NCBI GenBank assembly: GCA_963732385.1
Contig: CAVSZB010000007.1
Location: 928,001-992,000 of the forward strand
Source: an uncultured bacterium
GTDB lineage: Bacteria; Krumholzibacteriota; Krumholzibacteriia; LZORAL124-64-63
Reading direction: 5' to 3'
DNA: 64,000 nucleotides
Shown: positions 60-15,785 of the stretch, piece by piece
Position numbering within the stretch: the stretch's first letter is position 1
Layout: every line of letters begins with the position of its first letter
Notes under the pieces: generated by a model
Database searches by the model: none
Told to the model about the DNA's origin: nothing
What the model saw: only the letters and a program-made list of their open reading frames with translations
Translations under genes and position numbers: made by a program

Positions 60-866
60 TCAGCGCAGCACGCCGAACGAGACGCCAATGCGATACGGCC
101 CCATGACGTGGTTGCCGCCGACGTTGTCCCAGGTCCAGCCTTCGTGGAACAGGTTATCGATGAGCGGATTGGCCACCGGCGAGGCGAAGTCGCCGAACAC
201 GGTGATCATCGAGCCCTGCCCGACGAAGATGTCCACACCGAGCAGGAAGGTGGCGCCGGACGCCAGGCCGGTGTCGCTGCCCCAGGAACTGGCCCGGTCC
301 ACCGTGGCGTAGTCGACCGTCCATCTGTAGATGCCGAAACCGGCCCCGACCCACGGGCGGAAGCCGTTCTTCTGGAAGTCGTACTTGGCGCCCAGCCGCA
401 TCCCGGTCGTGTCCATGTAGAAGTAGGCATCGTCCGTGAACGGCCCGACGATGTGCGATTCGTAATCGGTCATCTCGTACACCCAGAAACTGGTGCTGTA
501 CTCGTCCTTGACCGCCACCTGCTTGCGGTACGTCGAGTAATTCCCGTCGAAGAACAGCCGCATGGCCGGGCTGACCCGGTAGTCGATCGACAAGCCGAAT
601 CCGTAGGGGCGCTCGATCGGGTTCATGTCGCCGTAGTCGTCGCCGTTCTGAGGCAACAGTGCGGTCGTGAGCCTGCCGCTCATGCCGAAGCCGCCGAAAC
701 TCAGACCCCACTTGGGGGGGGTGGGCGCGGTCTCCACTTCGTTGGCCAAGGGCTGCGGGTTTTCCTGCGCCCAGGGCACCCCGCAGGCCGCCAGGATGAA
801 GACGCTCACCAGCACAAACGTGCGCCAGGGCCGGGCGCAGACCGCGGACAGATTGGGCGAACTCAT
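60..866 (-). CDS. Outer-membrane beta-barrel protein (OmpW/OmpA-TM-like)
   Basis: N-terminal signal peptide; alternating beta-strands (PYGFGLSIDY, FRPWVGAGFGIY, terminal YRIGVSFG). Confidence 0.7.
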   Translation of the reverse strand: MSSPNLSAVCARPWRTFVLVSVFILAACGVPWAQENPQPLANEVETAPTPPKWGLSFGGFGMSGRLTTALLPQNGDDYGDMNPIERPYGFGLSIDYRVSPAMRLFFDGNYSTYRKQVAVKDEYSTSFWVYEMTDYESHIVGPFTDDAYFYMDTTGMRLGAKYDFQKNGFRPWVGAGFGIYRWTVDYATVDRASSWGSDTGLASGATFLLGVDIFVGQGSMITVFGDFASPVANPLIDNLFHEGWTWDNVGGNHVMGPYRIGVSFGVLR

Positions 867-1191
867 GGTGTCACCTTTCCGGACTGAAGTGGTCTGACGC
901 AGGAAAGATCGAGGGGCTCTCTGCTACTCGGTTTCGGCGGGACGCGCCCCGCGTGGGCACCTAGTGACCTGATCACAACGGAGACACATCACACCGTTAT
1001 CGGTGCGCGGCGCAGCCGACCTGAGCCGAAGGTGACGGGAATGAGGAGGTTGCGCAGCGGATTTCGACTCGCCGCCCTGCGCCGGCACGGTGGACCGCCC
1101 ATCGGGCGGGTGGTAGATTGACGAGCGGGACAGGCGCCGGTCCGCCGCCGCGGCAGGCCGCCACCGGCCGGCCCCCATCCCGGAGTCGACC

Positions 1192-2478
1192 ATGCCCTCC
1201 GCTCCGCTCTCCCGCCGCTGTTTCCTGAAAGCCGTCGCCGGCTGCGGCTTCGCCCTTGCCGCCTCACGCCTGCTGCCGGTCGCCGGGCCCATGCCCTGCG
1301 GGCGCCGCCTGGCCGGTGTGCCGGGCCTGCCGCCGCCGGCGCGCGCGGCCGGCGGCCCAGCCGACCCGTGGCGCCACGCTCCGGTCGCCCGCTGGTGGGC
1401 CGCCACGACGCAGGCCGGCGTCGCCTGCGCGACCTGTCACACGCCGTCCGAACTGCCCGAACCGTTTGGACCTTCCGCCGCGCCCGACCCGCACCGTCAC
1501 CAAGCTGAGCTCGTGAAGTGCCTGCTCTGCGCGCGCGGCTGCGCGCTGAAGGAAGGCGAGCGCGGCGAGTGCGGCGCCCGCCTGGTGCGCAGCGGCCGCC
1601 TGCTGAGCCTTACCTACGGCCGTCCGGTCGCCGTCCACGTCGATCCGATCGAGAAGAAACCGTTCTACCACTTCCTGCCCGGCGCGCTGGCGTACTCGTT
1701 CGGAACGGCGGGGTGCCCCCTGCACTGCGACTTCTGCCAGAACTGGGAATTGTCCCAGTCGCGACCCGAGGACTTTCCGGGCCCGTTCGTGCCGCCGGCG
1801 GAGCTGATCACGAGGGCCCGCCGGACGGAGGCGCCGATCATCGCCTTCACCTACGACGAACCGACCGTGTTCGCGGAGTACCTCATCGACGTGGCGCGCG
1901 CCGCGCGGCAGGCGGGACTGCGTCCGGTGCTGGTCAGCTGCGGCATCATGAACGAGGCGCCGCTGGCCGAGATGTGCGACGTCCTCGACGCGATCAAGAT
2001 CGACCTCAAAGGCTTCAGCGAGGAATTCTACCGCAAGGTATCGCACGCGGAACTCGCGCCGGTGTTGCGCAGCATCCGCCAGGTGGCGCAGCGCGGCGTG
2101 CACCTGGAGATCGTCAATCTCGTCGTGCCCACGCTCAACGACTCCGAGACGATGCTGCAGGGTCTCGCCGGCTGGCTCCTCGACGCCGTCGGGCCGGACG
2201 TACCGGTGCACTTCACGCGTTTCCACCCCGACTACCGGCTGCAGAACCTGCCGCCGACGCCGGTCGAGACGCTCGAGCGGGCGCGCGCGATCGCGCTGGC
2301 GAAGGGGCTGCGCTACGTCTACGTCGGCAACGTCCCGGGCCATCCCGGCAACGACACCGGCTGTCCGCGCTGCGGTGCGCTCGTCATCCGGCGCTCCGGT
2401 TTCCTGATCGAGGAGATGCACGTGAAGGACGGCAAATGCGCGCGCTGCGGCGCGCCGATCGCGGGGGTGTGGTCATGA
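1192..2478 (+). CDS. amrS: AmmeMemoRadiSam system radical SAM enzyme with Tat-like leader
   Basis: VDPIEKKPFYHF, GCPLHCDFCQNW (CxxxCxxC), FTYDEP, RFHPDY, YVYVGNVPG, C-terminal CPRCG..CARCG; SRRCFLK twin-arginine motif; GGAG SD. Confidence 0.92.
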   Translation: MPSAPLSRRCFLKAVAGCGFALAASRLLPVAGPMPCGRRLAGVPGLPPPARAAGGPADPWRHAPVARWWAATTQAGVACATCHTPSELPEPFGPSAAPDPHRHQAELVKCLLCARGCALKEGERGECGARLVRSGRLLSLTYGRPVAVHVDPIEKKPFYHFLPGALAYSFGTAGCPLHCDFCQNWELSQSRPEDFPGPFVPPAELITRARRTEAPIIAFTYDEPTVFAEYLIDVARAARQAGLRPVLVSCGIMNEAPLAEMCDVLDAIKIDLKGFSEEFYRKVSHAELAPVLRSIRQVAQRGVHLEIVNLVVPTLNDSETMLQGLAGWLLDAVGPDVPVHFTRFHPDYRLQNLPPTPVETLERARAIALAKGLRYVYVGNVPGHPGNDTGCPRCGALVIRRSGFLIEEMHVKDGKCARCGAPIAGVWS

Positions 2479-4031
2479 GGAGGAGCGCGCGTGGCGCGGC
2501 ACGGGCGATGATCCTGATGCTCGGCGCGGCGACGGTCGCGGCAGCGCTGGGCGCGGCCGCCTCGCCCGGCGGTCCGCAGCGGCCGCCGGCGGTGGCGGGC
2601 GGCTTCTACCCCGCCGACCGGTCGGAGCTGGCGGCGCAGGTGCGGGGGTTCCTGGCCCGGGCGCACGCGCCGATCGGCGGGCGTCCGGTGGCGATCGTGG
2701 CGCCGCACGCCGGCTACGTCTACTGCGGGCGCGTGCTCGGCGAGGCGTGGCGACAGGCGTCCGGGCAGGACTACGATCTCATCGTGATCCTCGGCGCGAA
2801 CCACCGTGTGGCCGGGCTGGATGCGTCGATCGTCTGGCCCGACGGCGCCTGGCGCACGCCGCTCGGCACGGTCTCCGTGGATGCGGCCGCGGCGCGCGCG
2901 CTGCTGGCGGCCGCCCCTGAATTGCGCGCGGCCACGGCGCCGCACGCCGACGAACATTCGCTCGAGGTGCAGGTGCCGTTCGCGCAGACCGTGTTTCCGC
3001 GCCTGCCGATCCTGCCGGTCCTGGTCGCGACCCAGGACCCGGGCCGCTGCGACCGGCTCGGTCGCGCGCTGGCCGCCGCGCTGCGCGATCGCCGCCCGCT
3101 GATCGTGGCCAGCAGCGACCTTTCGCATTACCCCGCCGCGCCCGCGGCGGAGCGTATCGATCGCGCCACGCTGGCGGCGATCGCCCGGTGCGATCCGGCG
3201 GCGCTGACACGGGCGATCGACACCGCGATGCGCAGCGATGTGCCTGGGTTGGCCACCTGCGCCTGCGGCGAAGCGCCGATCCGCGTCGCCCTGGCCGCTG
3301 CCGCGGCGCTTGGCGCGACGCGCGGCGTGGTCATCGACTACGCGAATTCGGCGCAGGCGCCGGCCGGCGACCCCCTGCGCGTCGTCGGGTACGGCGCGGT
3401 CGCCTTCTTCACCGGGCCGCCGCCCGCGCCAGGCACCGCGCCAGCTTCCGCGCCAGCTTCCGCGCCCGGCGCCGCGCGGTCTCTGTCGGCGGCCGATCGC
3501 GCCCTGCTCCTGCGTCTGGCGCGCGACACGATCCGCCGCCACTTCGACGGCGGCGGCGACCTCTCCGCTCCGGAGTGCGCCACAGCGGCCCTCGCCGAGT
3601 CGCGCGGCGCCTTCGTCACCCTCAAACGGGACGGCGCGCTGCGCGGCTGCATCGGACACCTCGGGCAGGACCTGCCGCTGTGCGAAGTGGTGCGGCAGAT
3701 GGCCGCGGCGGCCGCGTTCCAGGACTCGCGCTTCCCGCCCCTGACGCGCGGCGAACTCGACGGGGTGACCATCGAGATCTCCGCGCTCACCCGACCCCTC
3801 GCGATCGACAACGTCGCGGCGATCGCCATCGGCCGCGACGGCGTGATCCTGCGCAAGGGGCGACGCTCGGCGGTCTTTTTGCCGCAGGTCGCGGTCGAAC
3901 AGCGCTGGGACCGCGACACCCTGCTGACTCAGCTCGCGCTGAAGGCGGGACTGCCGGGCGACGCCTGGCGCGAAGGGGCGCAGTTCCAGACCTTCCAGGC
4001 CGAGGTGTTCGGCGAGACGGATCACCACTAA
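2475..4031 (+). CDS. amrB: AmmeMemoRadiSam protein B (Memo-like) fused to protein A (AMMECR1 domain)
   Basis: ATGA overlap with the amrS stop; RPPAVAGGFYP, APHAGYVYCG, EHSLEVQVPF, SSDLSHY, then GAFVTL..LRGCIG, DSRFPP, FLPQVA. Confidence 0.9.
   Translation: MRRSARGAARAMILMLGAATVAAALGAAASPGGPQRPPAVAGGFYPADRSELAAQVRGFLARAHAPIGGRPVAIVAPHAGYVYCGRVLGEAWRQASGQDYDLIVILGANHRVAGLDASIVWPDGAWRTPLGTVSVDAAAARALLAAAPELRAATAPHADEHSLEVQVPFAQTVFPRLPILPVLVATQDPGRCDRLGRALAAALRDRRPLIVASSDLSHYPAAPAAERIDRATLAAIARCDPAALTRAIDTAMRSDVPGLATCACGEAPIRVALAAAAALGATRGVVIDYANSAQAPAGDPLRVVGYGAVAFFTGPPPAPGTAPASAPASAPGAARSLSAADRALLLRLARDTIRRHFDGGGDLSAPECATAALAESRGAFVTLKRDGALRGCIGHLGQDLPLCEVVRQMAAAAAFQDSRFPPLTRGELDGVTIEISALTRPLAIDNVAAIAIGRDGVILRKGRRSAVFLPQVAVEQRWDRDTLLTQLALKAGLPGDAWREGAQFQTFQAEVFGETDHH
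3426..3477 (+). repeat. Imperfect 12-bp tandem repeat encoding the APGT-APAS-APAS-APGA interdomain linker
   Basis: gcgccaggcacc gcgccagcttcc gcgccagcttcc gcgcccggcgcc. Confidence 0.7.
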
Positions 4032-4034
4032 GCC

Positions 4035-6170
4035 ATGGGCGCACAACTGGTCGCGCTCGGTTTCCTCGCGCTGCTCGGGCAGGTCGTGCTGCTGCGCGAG
4101 GCGACGGTGGCGGCGTTCGGCAGCGAACTGGCGGTGGTGCTCGCGCTGGGGCTGTGGCTGCTCGGCGCCGCGGCCGGGGCTGCCGCCGGCGCGCGGCAGG
4201 CGAAACCGTCGCCGGCGCGCGTGGCCCGGCTGTTCGCCCTGGCCGGCGCGCTGGTCCCGTTCGCCCTCATCTGGTCGCGCGCGGCGCGGCCGCTGCTGGG
4301 CGGGGTGCGCGGCGGCGACCTCCCCTTCCCCCTGCAACTGGCGGCGATGGCGGTGACGCTCGTACCGGCGGCCGCGGCGGGCGGAGCCCTCTTCCCCGCG
4401 CTCGCCCGGCTCGCCGCCGCCCGCGGCCGCAGCGTCGCCAGCGCTTACGCCCTCGAGAGTGCCGGCGCGCTGCTGGGCGGGCTCGCCGCGGCGGCCGCGG
4501 CGCGTCTGGGGGTGCCGGGCCTGCTGCTCGCCCTCGCCTGCGCGGCTTTCGCCCCGCTCGCGCTGCTCGCCCGCGGCCGGCGGGCGGCGGCGGCCGGTTC
4601 AGCCGCGCTGCTCGCGCTGCTCGCCGCTCTCGCGCCGCGCCTCGACCTGGCCACCACCGGCTGGACCCACCCCGGCCTGGTCGAGACCCGCGACACCCCC
4701 TACGGCCGCCTCGCCCTCGAGGCGCACGCCGGACAGATCTCCGTCTTCGTCAACGACGCGCTCGCCTACGAGACGCAGGGCCAGTCGTCCGCCGAGTTCG
4801 CCTCGCTCGCGGCGCTGCAGACGGCCGATCCGCGCCGCGTCCTCGTGCTCGGCGGCGGCGCCTGCGGTCTGGTGCAGGAACTGCTGCGCCACGGCCCGCG
4901 CGAGGTGACCGCGGTCGACCTCGATCCCGCCCTGCAGCGCGCCCTCGCCCCCCGCCTCACGGCCGACCTGCGCGCCGCCCTGGCCGACCCGCGCGTGCGG
5001 ACCATCGCGGCCGACCCCCGCGCCTGGCTCGCGCGCGACATCGGCTTCTGGGACCTCATCCTGATCGGCCTGCCCGAGCCGGCCTCCGGCGCCACGAACC
5101 GTTTCTACACGCAGGAATTCTTCATGCTCTGCGCCGGACACCTGGCCCCCGGCGGCACCCTGGCGCTGCGCCTGCCGGCCGCGGAGAATCTCTGGGCCCC
5201 CGCCCAGGTGCGCCGCACCGCGAGCGTGGTCGCCGCGCTGCGCGCCGCCGGCACGGACGCGCTCGTGCTGCCCGGCGCCGCCGGCATCATCGTCGCGGCG
5301 AAGGGAACGCTGACGCGCGACCCCGCGCCGCTCTCCGCGCGCCTGATCGCGCGCGGCGCGTCCGGACCCCTCGTCACCCCGGCCTACCTGCGCTACCTCT
5401 TCACGAACGACCGCCTCGCCGGCGTCGCCGCGGCGCTGGCCACCGTCGACGCCCCCCCCAACCGCGACGCCCGCCCGGTCTGCTACCCCTACACGCTGGC
5501 CCTCTGGCTGGCGAAGTTCTACCCCGCGCTCGCGCGCCTCGACCCGCTCTCCGCCGCACGCCCGCTGCACTCCCTGTGGCCCGCCGCCGCGGCCGTCCTG
5601 GTGGCGCTGGTGTTCGTGACTCGCCGCCTGCGTCAACGCACGCTGCTCGCCGTCGCCGCCGCCGGGGCTGCCGGCATGCTGATCGAAGCGCTGGCCCTGC
5701 TCGCCTTCCAGACCCGCCACGGCGCCCTCTACCGCGACCTCGGCCTCCTGCTCGCCGCCTTCATGGCCGGCCTCGCCGTCGGCGCGCTGGTCATCGACCG
5801 CCTGCCGTTGGCCCCCGCGGGCAGCCGGCGCACAGCCGCCGCGCACGTGCGCGCCGCCGCTTTACCCGCCGTGCTCGCGCTCCTGGCCACCCTGCTCGCC
5901 CTGCGCCTGCGCGCCGGCGCGGCGCCCGGCCTGCCCGAGGCCTCGCTCTGGCTGGCGTCCGCAGGCGCGCTGACCGCCGCCGTCTTCGCCCTCGCCGCCC
6001 GCCGCCTGGAGTCGCCGGCCCGCGCGGCCGGCCCCCTCTACGCCGCGGACCTGATCGGCGGCTGCCTCGGCTCGCTCGCCGGCAGCCTGATCCTCGTGCC
6101 GCTCGCCGGCCTGCCGGCCACGGCAATGGCCGCGGCCGTCCTCGCGTTGATGGCTGCGGCATGGAGTTGA
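4035..6170 (+). CDS. Multi-pass membrane protein with a central spermidine-synthase-like SAM-binding domain
   Basis: N-terminal TM block with QVVLLRE and AYALESAGA; DTPYGRL, RVLVLGGG, VDLDP, NRFYTQEFF; C-terminal TM block with LYAADLIGG. Confidence 0.8.
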   Translation: MGAQLVALGFLALLGQVVLLREATVAAFGSELAVVLALGLWLLGAAAGAAAGARQAKPSPARVARLFALAGALVPFALIWSRAARPLLGGVRGGDLPFPLQLAAMAVTLVPAAAAGGALFPALARLAAARGRSVASAYALESAGALLGGLAAAAAARLGVPGLLLALACAAFAPLALLARGRRAAAAGSAALLALLAALAPRLDLATTGWTHPGLVETRDTPYGRLALEAHAGQISVFVNDALAYETQGQSSAEFASLAALQTADPRRVLVLGGGACGLVQELLRHGPREVTAVDLDPALQRALAPRLTADLRAALADPRVRTIAADPRAWLARDIGFWDLILIGLPEPASGATNRFYTQEFFMLCAGHLAPGGTLALRLPAAENLWAPAQVRRTASVVAALRAAGTDALVLPGAAGIIVAAKGTLTRDPAPLSARLIARGASGPLVTPAYLRYLFTNDRLAGVAAALATVDAPPNRDARPVCYPYTLALWLAKFYPALARLDPLSAARPLHSLWPAAAAVLVALVFVTRRLRQRTLLAVAAAGAAGMLIEALALLAFQTRHGALYRDLGLLLAAFMAGLAVGALVIDRLPLAPAGSRRTAAAHVRAAALPAVLALLATLLALRLRAGAAPGLPEASLWLASAGALTAAVFALAARRLESPARAAGPLYAADLIGGCLGSLAGSLILVPLAGLPATAMAAAVLALMAAAWS

Positions 6171-6199
6171 TCGGCGCCCGCCGCACCCTCACGCAGAGA

Positions 6200-6226
6200 G
6201 GCCCCGACCGCACGGCGGTCGGGGCC
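6200..6226. terminator. 12-bp hairpin between convergent genes
   Basis: ggccccgaccgc-acg-gcggtcggggcc. Confidence 0.55.
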
Positions 6227-6268
6227 AGAGCACCCAAGTCGGGCTATTGACGCCCGACCTCGCGCCGG

Positions 6269-6541
6269 TCAGGCCTTGACGTCGAGGACGGACTCGTCCG
6301 TGGCGCCGGGATGCTTCAGGTCGTAGGCGAGCTCCTCGAGCGCGCTCACCACTCCATCCTTGTTCGCATCCTTCTTGTCATAGCTCGTGCTCTCCGTCGT
6401 CGACCCGCTGCCGCCGGCCGCCGTCGCCTTGCCGGCCCCGCCCGCCGCCTGGCCTGCCCCGGCGCCCGACTTCGCCCCGGCAAGCTGCGCCGCCTGCACC
6501 AGGATCGACATGTGCGACCCGCTCGTTCCGGAAACTTCCAT
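6269..6541 (-). CDS. Small Gly/Ala-rich protein with a single EF-hand-like loop
   Basis: DANKDGVVSALEE fits the DxNxDGx[IV]SxxE loop; GGAGG SD upstream. Confidence 0.7.
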   Translation of the reverse strand: MEVSGTSGSHMSILVQAAQLAGAKSGAGAGQAAGGAGKATAAGGSGSTTESTSYDKKDANKDGVVSALEELAYDLKHPGATDESVLDVKA

Positions 6542-8094: not shown

Positions 8095-8170
8095 TGGTGC
8101 GCCGCCGGGGACTCGAACCCCAAACCTACTGATTAAGAGTCAGTTGCTCTACCAGTTGAGCTAGCGGCGC
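8095..8170 (-). tRNA. tRNA-Lys(CTT)
   Basis: GCGCCGCTAGCTCAACTGGTAGAGCAACTGACT-CTT-AATCAGTAGG...GTTCGAGTCCCCGGCGGCGCACCA; 76 nt with CCA. Confidence 0.97.
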
Positions 8171-8231
8171 TCCTGAAAGGGGCGGGTGTGGCCGGCGGGG
8201 ATGCGGACTGCCATCCTCGCGGGGACCACGG

Positions 8232-8260
8232 AATTAAGCACGGTGGGGCGGCGTTGTCAA
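8232..8260 (-). promoter_or_regulatory. sigma70-type promoter of tRNA-Lys
   Basis: TTGACA-N17-TTAATT. Confidence 0.55.
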
Positions 8261-8291
8261 GGCGGAGAGTCCCTGGTCCGCGGGAGGCAAA

Positions 8292-8963
8292 ATGGCGGCA
8301 GATGGCGTGACGACGCCCCGGGTTCTGGACCTGGCGGCGCGCAGGCGCCGTGCGAAAAAGGTCGTGCGGGTGCTGCGGAAGGAGTTTCCGGAGGCTGCCT
8401 GCTCGCTGGATCATCAGGACCCGTTCCAGCTGCTGGTGGCGACCATCCTCTCGGCGCAGTGCACGGATGCGCGGGTCAATCTGGTGACGCCGGAGCTGTT
8501 CCGGCGGTTTCCGTCGCCACGCGATTTCGCGGCGGCGCCTCTGGCCAGGATCCAGGAGACGATACGGTCGACCGGGTTCTTCCACAACAAGGCGAAGGCG
8601 TTGCAGGGGTGCGCTCGCGCCTTGATCGAGCGGCATGGCGGGGAGGTGCCGCGCACGATGGACGAGTTACGGGTGCTGCCGGGGGTGGGGCGCAAGACGG
8701 CCAACGTGGTGCTCGGGGACGCATATGGGGCGCCGGAAGGGGTCGTGGTCGACACGCATGTGGGGCGGATCACGCGGAAGCTCGGGCTGACCGGGGAGCA
8801 GGATCCGGAGAAGGTCGAGCGGGATCTCAGCGGCTGTATCCCCCGCGCCGACTGGGTGGCGGTCGGGCATCTGCTGATCGAACATGGGCGACGGACCTGC
8901 CGGGCGCGGGCGCCGCGCTGCGACGGATGTCAGCTTTATGCGGAGTGTGAGACGCGGGGCTGA
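8292..8963 (+). CDS. nth: Endonuclease III
   Basis: LLVATILSAQCTD, HhH LPGVGRKTANVV, VVDTHV, C-terminal CRARAPRCDGCQLYAEC 4Fe-4S motif. Confidence 0.97.
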   Translation: MAADGVTTPRVLDLAARRRRAKKVVRVLRKEFPEAACSLDHQDPFQLLVATILSAQCTDARVNLVTPELFRRFPSPRDFAAAPLARIQETIRSTGFFHNKAKALQGCARALIERHGGEVPRTMDELRVLPGVGRKTANVVLGDAYGAPEGVVVDTHVGRITRKLGLTGEQDPEKVERDLSGCIPRADWVAVGHLLIEHGRRTCRARAPRCDGCQLYAECETRG

Positions 8964-9037
8964 CCGGCGCCGGGGTGAAAAGCGGCGCCGGCCTCGGGGG
9001 AGGCCGGCGCGCGTGCGTGAGGCAGGATCCGCGGCGG

Positions 9038-9526
9038 TCAGAACGGCAGGTCGTCGTCGTCCGAGCCGGGCGGAGGGGCCTGCGGGAAATCGCCTTCGTC
9101 GTCGGGATGGGGGGACGGGCCGCCGGGGCGCGGGCCGCGCTGGCCGCCACCGCTGCGCTCGGAGCGGCCACCGCCGCCGCCGCCCTCGCCCTCACCGGGG
9201 CGGCCGAGCATCTGCATGATGTTGGCCACGATCTCGGTGGTGTAGCGCTTGCCGCCCTCCTTGTCCTCCCACTGGCGGGTCTGGATGCGGCCCTCGACGT
9301 AGATCTGCTTGCCCTTCTTCAGGTACTGCCCGCAGATCTCGCCGAGCTTGCCCCAGGCCACGATGTTGTGCCACTCGGTGCGTTCCTGCTTGTTCCCTTC
9401 ACGGTCGGTCCAGACGTCGGTGGTGGCGATACGGAAGTTCGCCACCGCCTGGCTGTTCTGGGTGTAGCGCACCTCGGGGTCGGCCCCGAGGTTGCCAATG
9501 AGGATGACCTTGTTGACACTCGCCAT
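9038..9526 (-). CDS. ssb: Single-stranded DNA-binding protein
   Basis: [20 protein letters not shown], Gly-rich linker, DDDLPF tail. Confidence 0.98.
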
Positions 9527-9692
9527 CCCAACCTCCTGCGGCTGGGCGGCCGCTGGCCGCCCTGGTTCTTGATGGCCCGGTTGACCGGGCGCTCCCGGCG
9601 CGCAGCCCTGACCGCCACCCGGGCAGGGGAGGACACGGCGGCTGGGAGGAACGCCCCGATCGCGCGCGGAGATCGGGACGGGAGAAAAGCGG

Positions 9693-9769
9693 TGGGGTGG
9701 ATGATGGGACTCGAACCCACAACAACCGGGACCACAACCCGGGGCTCTGCCAGTTGAGCTACATCCACC
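9693..9769 (-). tRNA. tRNA-His(GTG), including G-1
   Basis: GGTGGATGTAGCTCAACTGGCAGAGCCCCGGGTT-GTG-GTCCCGG...GTTCGAGTCCCATCATCCACCCCA. Confidence 0.96.
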
Positions 9770-9785
9770 ACCGAAGTTGCATGTC

Positions 9786-9862
9786 TGGCGCGCCTGGCAG
9801 GACTCGAACCTGCGACCGTCGGATTAGAAATCCGATGCTCTATCCGACTGAGCTACAGGCGC
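9786..9862 (-). tRNA. tRNA-Arg(TCT)
   Basis: GCGCCTGTAGCTCAGTCGGATAGAGCATCGGATT-TCT-AATCCGA...GTTCGAGTCCTGCCAGGCGCGCCA. Confidence 0.96.
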
Positions 9863-9948
9863 AAGCTTACCCCGCCACAGCACGCGGGGAGCGCTATGAT
9901 GGCCCCGGTCGCGCGGCGTGTCAAGGGGCCCGCCGTCAACGGCGGAGG

Positions 9949-10025
<77 letters not shown>

Positions 10026-15699: not shown

Positions 15700-15785
15700 G
15701 CCCGGATGGCGGAATTGGTAGACGCGCTACGTTCAGGTCGTAGTGAGGAATCCTCGTGGGAGTTCGAGTCTCCCTCCGGGCACCA
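15700..15785 (+). tRNA. tRNA-Leu(CAG)
   Basis: GCCCGGATGGCGGAATTGGTAGACGCGCTACGTT-CAG-GTCGTAG, long variable arm, GTTCGAGTCTCCCTCCGGGCACCA. Confidence 0.96.

Follow-up and report, generated by a model that had tools for sequence, protein, structure and literature searches.

An AmmeMemoRadiSam operon with predicted export leaders and a major-facilitator-fold membrane partner in an uncultured Krumholzibacteriota bacterium

Can a radical S-adenosylmethionine (SAM) enzyme work on the outer side of the cytoplasmic membrane? Radical-SAM enzymes are taken to be cytoplasmic, since they need both SAM and a strong reductant, and the question is raised here by a three-gene operon in a stretch of 64,000 nucleotides (the window, GenBank assembly GCA_963732385.1, contig CAVSZB010000007.1, positions 928,001 to 992,000 of the forward strand) from an uncultured bacterium of the Krumholzibacteriota. 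The operon encodes the radical-SAM protein AmrS and a fusion of the Memo and AMMECR1 proteins, which together make up an AmmeMemoRadiSam system, followed by a large membrane protein. Memo and AMMECR1 are conserved up to humans, and we know of no substrate for the system. As judged from the leaders of the two proteins and of their relatives, it is highly probable that both AmrS and the Memo-AMMECR1 fusion are exported. The features on which the argument turns are the following.

1192..2478, forward strand: AmrS, 428 amino acids, of an export-type clade (TIGR04337, AlphaFold model, tree)
1192..1347, forward strand: predicted twin-arginine leader of AmrS, amino acids 1-52, with SRRCFLK (R8R9 in 117/120 close orthologues, A52 in 98/120)
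1426..1500, forward strand: mini-domain C79-x2-C82-H83...H103 inserted in the N-terminal hairpin of AmrS, a candidate c-type haem site with zinc as the rival
1714..1737, forward strand: radical-SAM CxxxCxxC motif (C175, C179, C182), invariant in two alignments
2475..4031, forward strand: Memo-AMMECR1 fusion with a Sec-type leader, 518 amino acids (TIGR04336, TIGR04335, PF01875, PF01871)
4035..6170, forward strand: membrane protein of the major facilitator superfamily (MFS) fold with an inserted spermidine-synthase-fold domain, 711 amino acids (AlphaFold, fold matches)
4632..5534, forward strand: SAM-type domain of the membrane protein, about amino acids 200-500, predicted to face outward (PF01564 at 38.6 bits; match to 1uir)

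The three genes are tightly coupled, as a sequence-only reading of this DNA had stated and as the reading-frame coordinates bear out: AmrS and the fusion gene share an ATGA overlap at 2475-2478, and 3 nucleotides separate the fusion gene from the membrane gene. By every testable feature the system is a member of AmmeMemoRadiSam, and what is new about it is its predicted location and its fourth component. AmrS scores 363 bits against TIGR04337 (cut-off 220), and the fusion scores 234 bits against the Memo model TIGR04336 (cut-off 26) and 175.6 bits against the AMMECR1 model TIGR04335 (cut-off 99). The fusion consists of the leader (amino acids 1-29), the Memo domain (36-311) and the AMMECR1 domain (344-512), with the motifs PHAG, GANH, EHS, SSDLSHY, CACG, LRGCIG and FLPQV all intact. 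The canonical system likewise passes all three models with its catalytic-type motifs intact, and the function of both is uncharacterised; it lacks, however, the export leaders, the CxxCH...H insert and the MFS/SAM-domain component of the window system, whose AmrS falls in a clade of its own and whose genome holds a leaderless set besides. No description of an exported AmmeMemoRadiSam was found in the literature searched; the Memo survey of Burroughs et al. (2019) lay outside that coverage and may mention secreted forms.

The AlphaFold model of AmrS has a mean predicted local distance difference test score (pLDDT) of 91, and its closest solved fold is pyruvate formate-lyase activase (8fo0; E value 6e-15, TM-score 0.81 on the target, 18% identity). 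Identity as a glycyl-radical activase was nevertheless rejected, with 46 bits against a cut-off of 232 for TIGR02493 and 44 against 174 for TIGR02494; AmrS differs from these activases in its extra N- and C-terminal cysteine sites and its predicted export, and no glycyl-radical enzyme gene occurs among the conserved neighbours of the 37 loci clustered. One of the extra sites, CxxCxxxC-x9-C (C110/C113/C117/C127, window 1519-1572), is invariant in all aligned AmrS sequences and could hold an auxiliary iron-sulfur cluster instead of zinc. In the C-terminal CxxC pairs the next residue varies.

What is the evidence that AmrS leaves the cytoplasm? The sequence-only reading had assigned it a twin-arginine translocation (Tat) leader from the motif LSRRCFLK followed by a hydrophobic stretch. 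The motif is present, and the three close orthologues without the arginine pair have database entries that start past it; the F of the motif is found in 105 of the 120 and the L in 94, and 106 satisfy a Tat-finder-like rule of our own making. These counts lean upward, since the 120 were picked with a profile (416 positions, the leader being a small part) that contains the very motifs counted. Cleavage is predicted near A52. Less secure is the leader of the window's own copy, which scores 13.3 bits against TIGR01409 (cut-off 16.7) and falls one residue short under our own rule because Arg26 breaks the hydrophobic stretch; the same cut-off is passed by 4 of 6 orthologue N-termini (60-residue pieces). 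The close group of AmrS comprises 16 of 80 retrieved loci, 14 with the SRR leader and 2 cut by contig ends, and the genome encodes TatC (PF00902, 220 bits).

The Sec-like leader proposed for the fusion is present in the sequence, and the same clade has it throughout: all 28 Memo-AMMECR1 genes carry a hydrophobic leader, with an 11-residue hydropathy of 1.5-3.8, and the seven canonical genes compared have values of -0.5 to 0.6 or no leader. The lowest of the 28 values belongs to L116, whose sequence has masked bases, and some orthologue leaders carry a lipobox-like Cys. It might be objected that the true starts lie downstream of the leaders, an outcome which the sequence-only reading had itself named as fatal to its claim. 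This was rejected. The ATG at 1192 pairs with the ribosome at -6.1 kcal/mol, against -2.4 and -2.1 for the other AmrS starts compared, and the ATG at 2475 at -9.9 kcal/mol, against -2.5 and -2.9; in the window fusion there is no ATG downstream of the hydrophobic leader stretch. An 837-residue frame at 1518-4031 and other overlapping frames were also rejected, as nothing backs them beyond the ATG at 2475.

A sister lineage handles the same gene in another way. Its AmrS has a Tat leader and no CxxCH insert, and in all 17 of the genomes compared (loci L122-L125, L165, L173, L205-L207, L209 and L211-L217) there is a single AMMECR1 gene, with AmrS, the fusion and a convergent membrane gene all present. 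A hydrophobic leader is present in these fusions, and 16 of the 17 also have an internal ATG 2-5 codons before the Memo core; its ribosome-site pairing is -5.5 kcal/mol or stronger in 15/16 cases, versus 11/117 for other internal ATGs. The gene thus likely yields a secreted and a cytoplasmic product, on the basis of a few related families. Genomes of the CxxCH type, to which the window belongs, have two AMMECR1 genes in 18/21 cases, and their fusion loci lack the pre-Memo ATG (2/28 have one, within the leader). A single gene with both a leader and an internal start in one lineage, and two genes in the other, is the pattern expected of a system that is needed in two compartments.

The phylogeny of AmrS is consistent with an outside-acting branch. 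A tree was built from 166 cores, with leaders excluded, incomplete cores dropped, a midpoint root, and leaders labelled both automatically and by hand. All 63 leader-labelled sequences fall into one clade of 70 (FastTree support 0.91), and none of the 96 sequences outside it is labelled with a leader. The comparison of AmrS with and without a leader, which had been proposed as a check, therefore gives a single leader clade, set apart from the leaderless paralogue of the same genome. The seven unlabelled members of the clade are two whose leaders the rule missed, one truncated sequence and four apparently leaderless ones. P0135, which lies beside P0151 in the tree, has a transit-peptide-like start and may be eukaryotic, and P0068 and P0116 are AmrS sequences interrupted by inteins with LAGLIDADG domains.

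The genome of the window encodes a second AmrS and a second Memo-AMMECR1, both leaderless. This leaderless Memo-AMMECR1 copy (L004:2775-8646) opens a gene run suggestive of lipid metabolism, which includes a class I/II aminotransferase, an NAD-dependent epimerase and a PAP2 protein. Six sister-lineage genomes among the 61 described below have two AmrS each; the second copy was checked in three and is leaderless in all of them.

The usual companion of an export-type AmrS is the membrane gene. Of 61 related genomes, which are kin and not independent samples, 24 have both, 1 has only the export-type AmrS, 1 only the membrane gene and 35 neither; contig ends truncate two of the membrane-gene matches and one AmrS. 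The AmrS-only genome is 82% complete, and its contig ends within the fusion gene. We also inspected 40 membrane-gene loci, namely those of the 20 best matches (G000 and G001 left out) and of 20 hand-chosen from 37 further genomes. AmrS is found in 34 of them, 33 with a visible leader, one contig-cut and none leaderless, and the fusion gene in 35. The co-occurrence of the Tat-type AmrS with the membrane gene, another check that had been proposed, thus holds in genomes and in gene neighbourhoods alike. AmrS adjoins the membrane gene with no fusion gene in L013 and L208, and in L106 (G002, a 62%-complete assembly) all three genes are frameshifted, probably by sequencing errors. In genus g10 (L155:6342-9412, L156:6458-10408) a leaderless AmrS stands directly before another, longer membrane protein, which carries a spermidine-synthase-like domain and is 28-29% identical to the window protein; the arrangement may be chance or an older link. 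A metagenome scan with the membrane protein returned one partial locus.

What does this membrane protein do? It had been described as a multi-helix, spermidine-synthase-like protein that could supply or handle SAM or modify an envelope substrate. The AlphaFold model (pLDDT 94.5) shows seven helices, a domain of about 300 residues and seven more helices. The membrane part matches VMAT2 (Z 27.7, root-mean-square deviation 3.5, 322 aligned residues) and SotB (Z 24.7, deviation 3.8, 330 aligned), and most rows of the match list are MFS proteins; the two halves form an internal repeat (probability 95%), and the acidic residues E22, E31, E141 and D672 are conserved. Over the MFS matches as a group (VMAT2, SotB, MdfA), the Z score is 21-28 across 320-340 residues with the two-fold repeat shared, but identity is 10-15% and the window protein adds two central helices that carry the 300-residue enzyme-fold domain. 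It was the wider structure search that gave the MFS match, whereas Foldseek on the whole protein returned spermidine synthases only; no Pfam MFS match was found at E 0.1. The nearest named Atlas cluster (score 0.89) has PF07690 on 16% of its members, which is a lead only.

The inserted domain matches the spermidine synthase 1uir (Z 29.4, deviation 2.5, 271 aligned) and has the full fold including the N-terminal strand domain. The balance of Lys and Arg (19.6 versus 7.9) favours a position outside the membrane, in the same direction in 127/127 sequences, and the domain is accordingly predicted to lie on that side. It retains the GGG motif (G273 and G274 conserved), the acidic residue at 295 and D327, and likely binds SAM or a close relative. 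In aminopropyltransferases the acidic residue after GGG binds the aminopropyl amine, and the Asp of D-x-x-D-P is catalytic. By a single HMMER alignment, A276 aligns with the Glu of 3anx, with A, V, I, L and P the five commonest residues there and Glu or Asp at the following position in only 53/127, and G345 aligns with the catalytic Asp, the residue being G, A, N or S in 127/127. The protein also stays below the family cut-offs (105.7 of 472 bits for NF002956; 46.7 of 249.55 for TIGR00417). Spermidine synthase activity was therefore rejected, and with both acidic positions lost the protein is not filed as a spermidine synthase. It shares with the membrane aminopropyltransferases (PRK03612, NF002956) the fold, PF01564, GGG and the nucleoside-binding acidic residues; it differs in that its domain sits between two MFS halves, is predicted to face outward and has the acidic catalytic positions replaced. 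The sequence-only reading did not see that the membrane part is, as predicted, a 14-helix MFS transporter fold.

A role in the supply or handling of SAM fits this MFS fold and the lost aminopropyltransferase residues. That SAM itself is the molecule transported, and in the outward direction, is a proposal from the models which we regard as evenly poised. A different use of the same parts is possible, though we consider it rather doubtful: the system would still be exported, with the membrane protein acting as an enzyme or a substrate carrier. The outward domain would then use SAM to methylate an envelope substrate or to attach an aminocarboxypropyl group to it; alternatively, the MFS part would flip the substrate or retrieve SAM cleavage products. 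In either case AmrS and Memo-AMMECR1 would carry out further steps on the same substrate. The retained SAM-side residues, together with the separate invariant pocket of the domain and its complete spermidine-synthase fold, speak for such an enzyme, as do two loci (L109, L120) in which Memo-AMMECR1 accompanies the membrane gene and AmrS is missing. Yet the acidic positions for amine chemistry (A276, G345) are lost, and in the 37 loci clustered the CxxCH-type operons have no fourth conserved gene as a candidate for a substrate or its producer, nor do the neighbours hint at one. SAM would still have to cross the membrane, and the sole transporter of the operon is the membrane protein.

How could an AmrS on the outside obtain electrons? 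The CxxCH...H insert, which the sequence-only reading did not note, may be part of the answer. C79, C82, H83 and the later His are present in 120/120 orthologues, and the insert is absent from leaderless AmrS and from the sister Tat AmrS. It is a candidate site for c-type haem, with haem and zinc about equally probable as its ligand. The haem c reading fits the pattern of electron modules described below and a genome rich in multihaem reading frames, with three cytochrome-c assembly genes and 23 reading frames of at least three CxxCH motifs, one of them with 42.

That pattern comes from a domain scan of AmrS covering 28 of 150 representatives. In P0013 and P0026 a single N-terminal helix is followed by a flavin mononucleotide (FMN)-binding domain with an SGAT motif and then by AmrS; as no further helix intervenes, AmrS is placed on the flavinylation side of the membrane. 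Other export-clade AmrS proteins are fused to FMN-binding and NapH-like domains (P0014, P0025, P0032), to DsbD-like domains (P0012, P0017, P0032) or, in P0050, to a Memo-AMMECR1 with a Sec leader, and NapH-like and DsbD-like genes adjoin the membrane gene in L046 (13512-15271). According to passages of PMC8238504, FMN-binding, NapH-like and DsbD modules are extracytosolic electron-transfer systems. The same modules are thus fused to or stand beside the export-clade AmrS, although the acceptors named in those passages are respiratory reductases and thioredoxin-like proteins, not a radical-SAM enzyme, and the window lineage has the CxxCH insert instead. In the literature searched, no paper joined extracytosolic flavinylation with radical SAM, and none joined DUF362 with it; the gene-cluster table of PMC8238504 lay outside the coverage and may list such loci.

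Just upstream of the insert-less Tat AmrS there is often a DUF362 gene (L122:12140-13108, L166, L167:4367-5491, L169, L205, L208, L211, L214), with a twin-arginine-like start in L167, whose product may donate electrons to that AmrS. When three such neighbours (a NapH-like, a DsbD-like and a DUF362 protein) were used as tblastn queries, the window genome gave no match. Two further fusions carry the export-clade AmrS behind a two-component-regulator propeller (P0020) and behind a family 11 carbohydrate-binding module (P0022), the latter of which may hint at a glycan substrate.

So many redox parts raise the thought that the exported AmrS performs no radical chemistry at all and serves the membrane protein as an iron-sulfur and haem redox carrier or sensor. 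The extra metal sites (C110/C113/C117/C127, the C-terminal CxxC pairs, CxxCH) and the fusions to electron-transfer domains would suit that role. We find it improbable, however: the CxxxCxxC motif and the full activase-like core match those of cytoplasmic members in conservation, and the constant partner has its SAM-type domain on the side predicted for AmrS as well.

Taken together, the leaders, the single clade, the co-occurrence, the outward SAM-type domain and the fusions to extracytoplasmic electron-transfer domains support the envelope-localised variant that had been proposed from sequence. In the mechanism we favour, the operon would encode a second AmmeMemoRadiSam copy that acts at the outer surface of the cytoplasmic membrane. 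Tat would export AmrS, folded and with its iron-sulfur clusters loaded, and Sec the Memo-AMMECR1 fusion. SAM, exported by the MFS-fold protein, would reach the outward SAM-type domain of that protein and be passed from there to AmrS; the CxxCH...H insert would bind a c-type haem and relay electrons to the radical-SAM cluster. AmrS would then abstract a hydrogen, and the metal-site Memo and AMMECR1 domains would do the follow-up chemistry, presumably by the type of reaction that the cytoplasmic system performs, on an envelope molecule. As one chain from Tat export to envelope modification we put this forward tentatively, at slightly short of an even chance.

It is worth pointing out that a number of observations pull in the opposite direction. 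To our knowledge neither SAM nor a low-potential reductant has been established outside the membrane. The weak leader score of the window copy and the upward lean of the motif counts have been described, and the kinship of the genomes tempers the co-occurrence. Four apparently leaderless AmrS nest in the export clade, one of them archaeal (L020, Methanosarcinales). AmrS and the fusion stand with no membrane gene within 4.9-6.4 kb downstream in L007, L010 and L015; G027 has the membrane gene and only a leaderless AmrS; and strict coupling is further contradicted by G012, G022 and G134, where parts of the system are divided over several loci. The SAM-type domain has a strongly conserved pocket of its own (E253, P349, N355, R356, E384, N385), which could mean catalysis instead of hand-over. 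As for the insert, the mature AmrS model is least confident over the distal half of it (pLDDT 61 at residues 91-100), and the haem machinery PF01578 is found in 33/33 CxxCH-type and 21/22 insert-less genomes, so nearly universal in both groups that its presence cannot discriminate. According to PMC13645880, the maturation of cytochrome c in prokaryotes goes strictly with Sec and never with Tat, a rule that a haem c site on a Tat-type AmrS would contradict; c-type cytochromes are exported by Sec as unfolded apoproteins, and the leader of AmrS is of the twin-arginine type.

Could the leaders then be membrane anchors or degenerate signals, with the enzymes on the cytoplasmic face and zinc in the insert? 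SAM and the reductant are established as cytoplasmic, the Tat score of the window is weak, and the internal starts of the sister lineage allow a leaderless product. The incompatibility of Tat and haem c, as stated in PMC13645880, would also vanish. We nevertheless hold this arrangement to be unlikely, given the conservation of RR-x-FL, the flavinylation-domain fusions with no intervening helix, the uniform charge bias of the 127 membrane proteins, the leaderless paralogues that these genomes retain as separate genes and the lack of an internal start in the window fusion.

If the periplasmic reading is true, it breaks two rules, that radical-SAM enzymes are cytoplasmic and that haem c is attached to Sec substrates only; a Tat substrate bearing haem c would depart from the rule given in PMC13645880. 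With a widespread clade acting outside, radical-SAM chemistry would reach the cell envelope, and a route of SAM export would be implied. The fullest form of this idea is a periplasmic radical-SAM system in which the MFS protein with its SAM-type domain exports SAM, the electron module is interchangeable (a c-type haem on a Tat-exported protein here; flavinylated, NapH-like, DsbD-like or DUF362 modules elsewhere) and the sister-lineage fusion has a dual start, and in that form we regard it as possible but questionable. A version acting outside the membrane would also argue against nucleic acid as the substrate class. Assays of the envelope version could moreover be made in a compartment where few other reactions compete, and would so offer a handle on the question of Memo and AMMECR1.

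The surroundings of the operon can be described briefly. No sigma-70 promoter and no intrinsic terminator were found at 860-6400. At window 6199-6225, just 3' of the operon and between convergent genes, there is a G+C-rich inverted repeat with no T run, which was not scored as a terminator in that search. Three flanking genes were judged by eye, with no family match above cut-off.

60-866, reverse strand: likely outer-membrane beta-barrel
6269-6541, reverse strand: small low-complexity protein with an EF-hand-like loop
6681-7649, reverse strand: likely lipoprotein

Further along, the window carries transfer RNAs for Lys, His, Arg, Pro and Leu (8095-10025 and 15700-15785), and a selenocysteine transfer RNA lies elsewhere on the contig (G000:C7:836762-836859).

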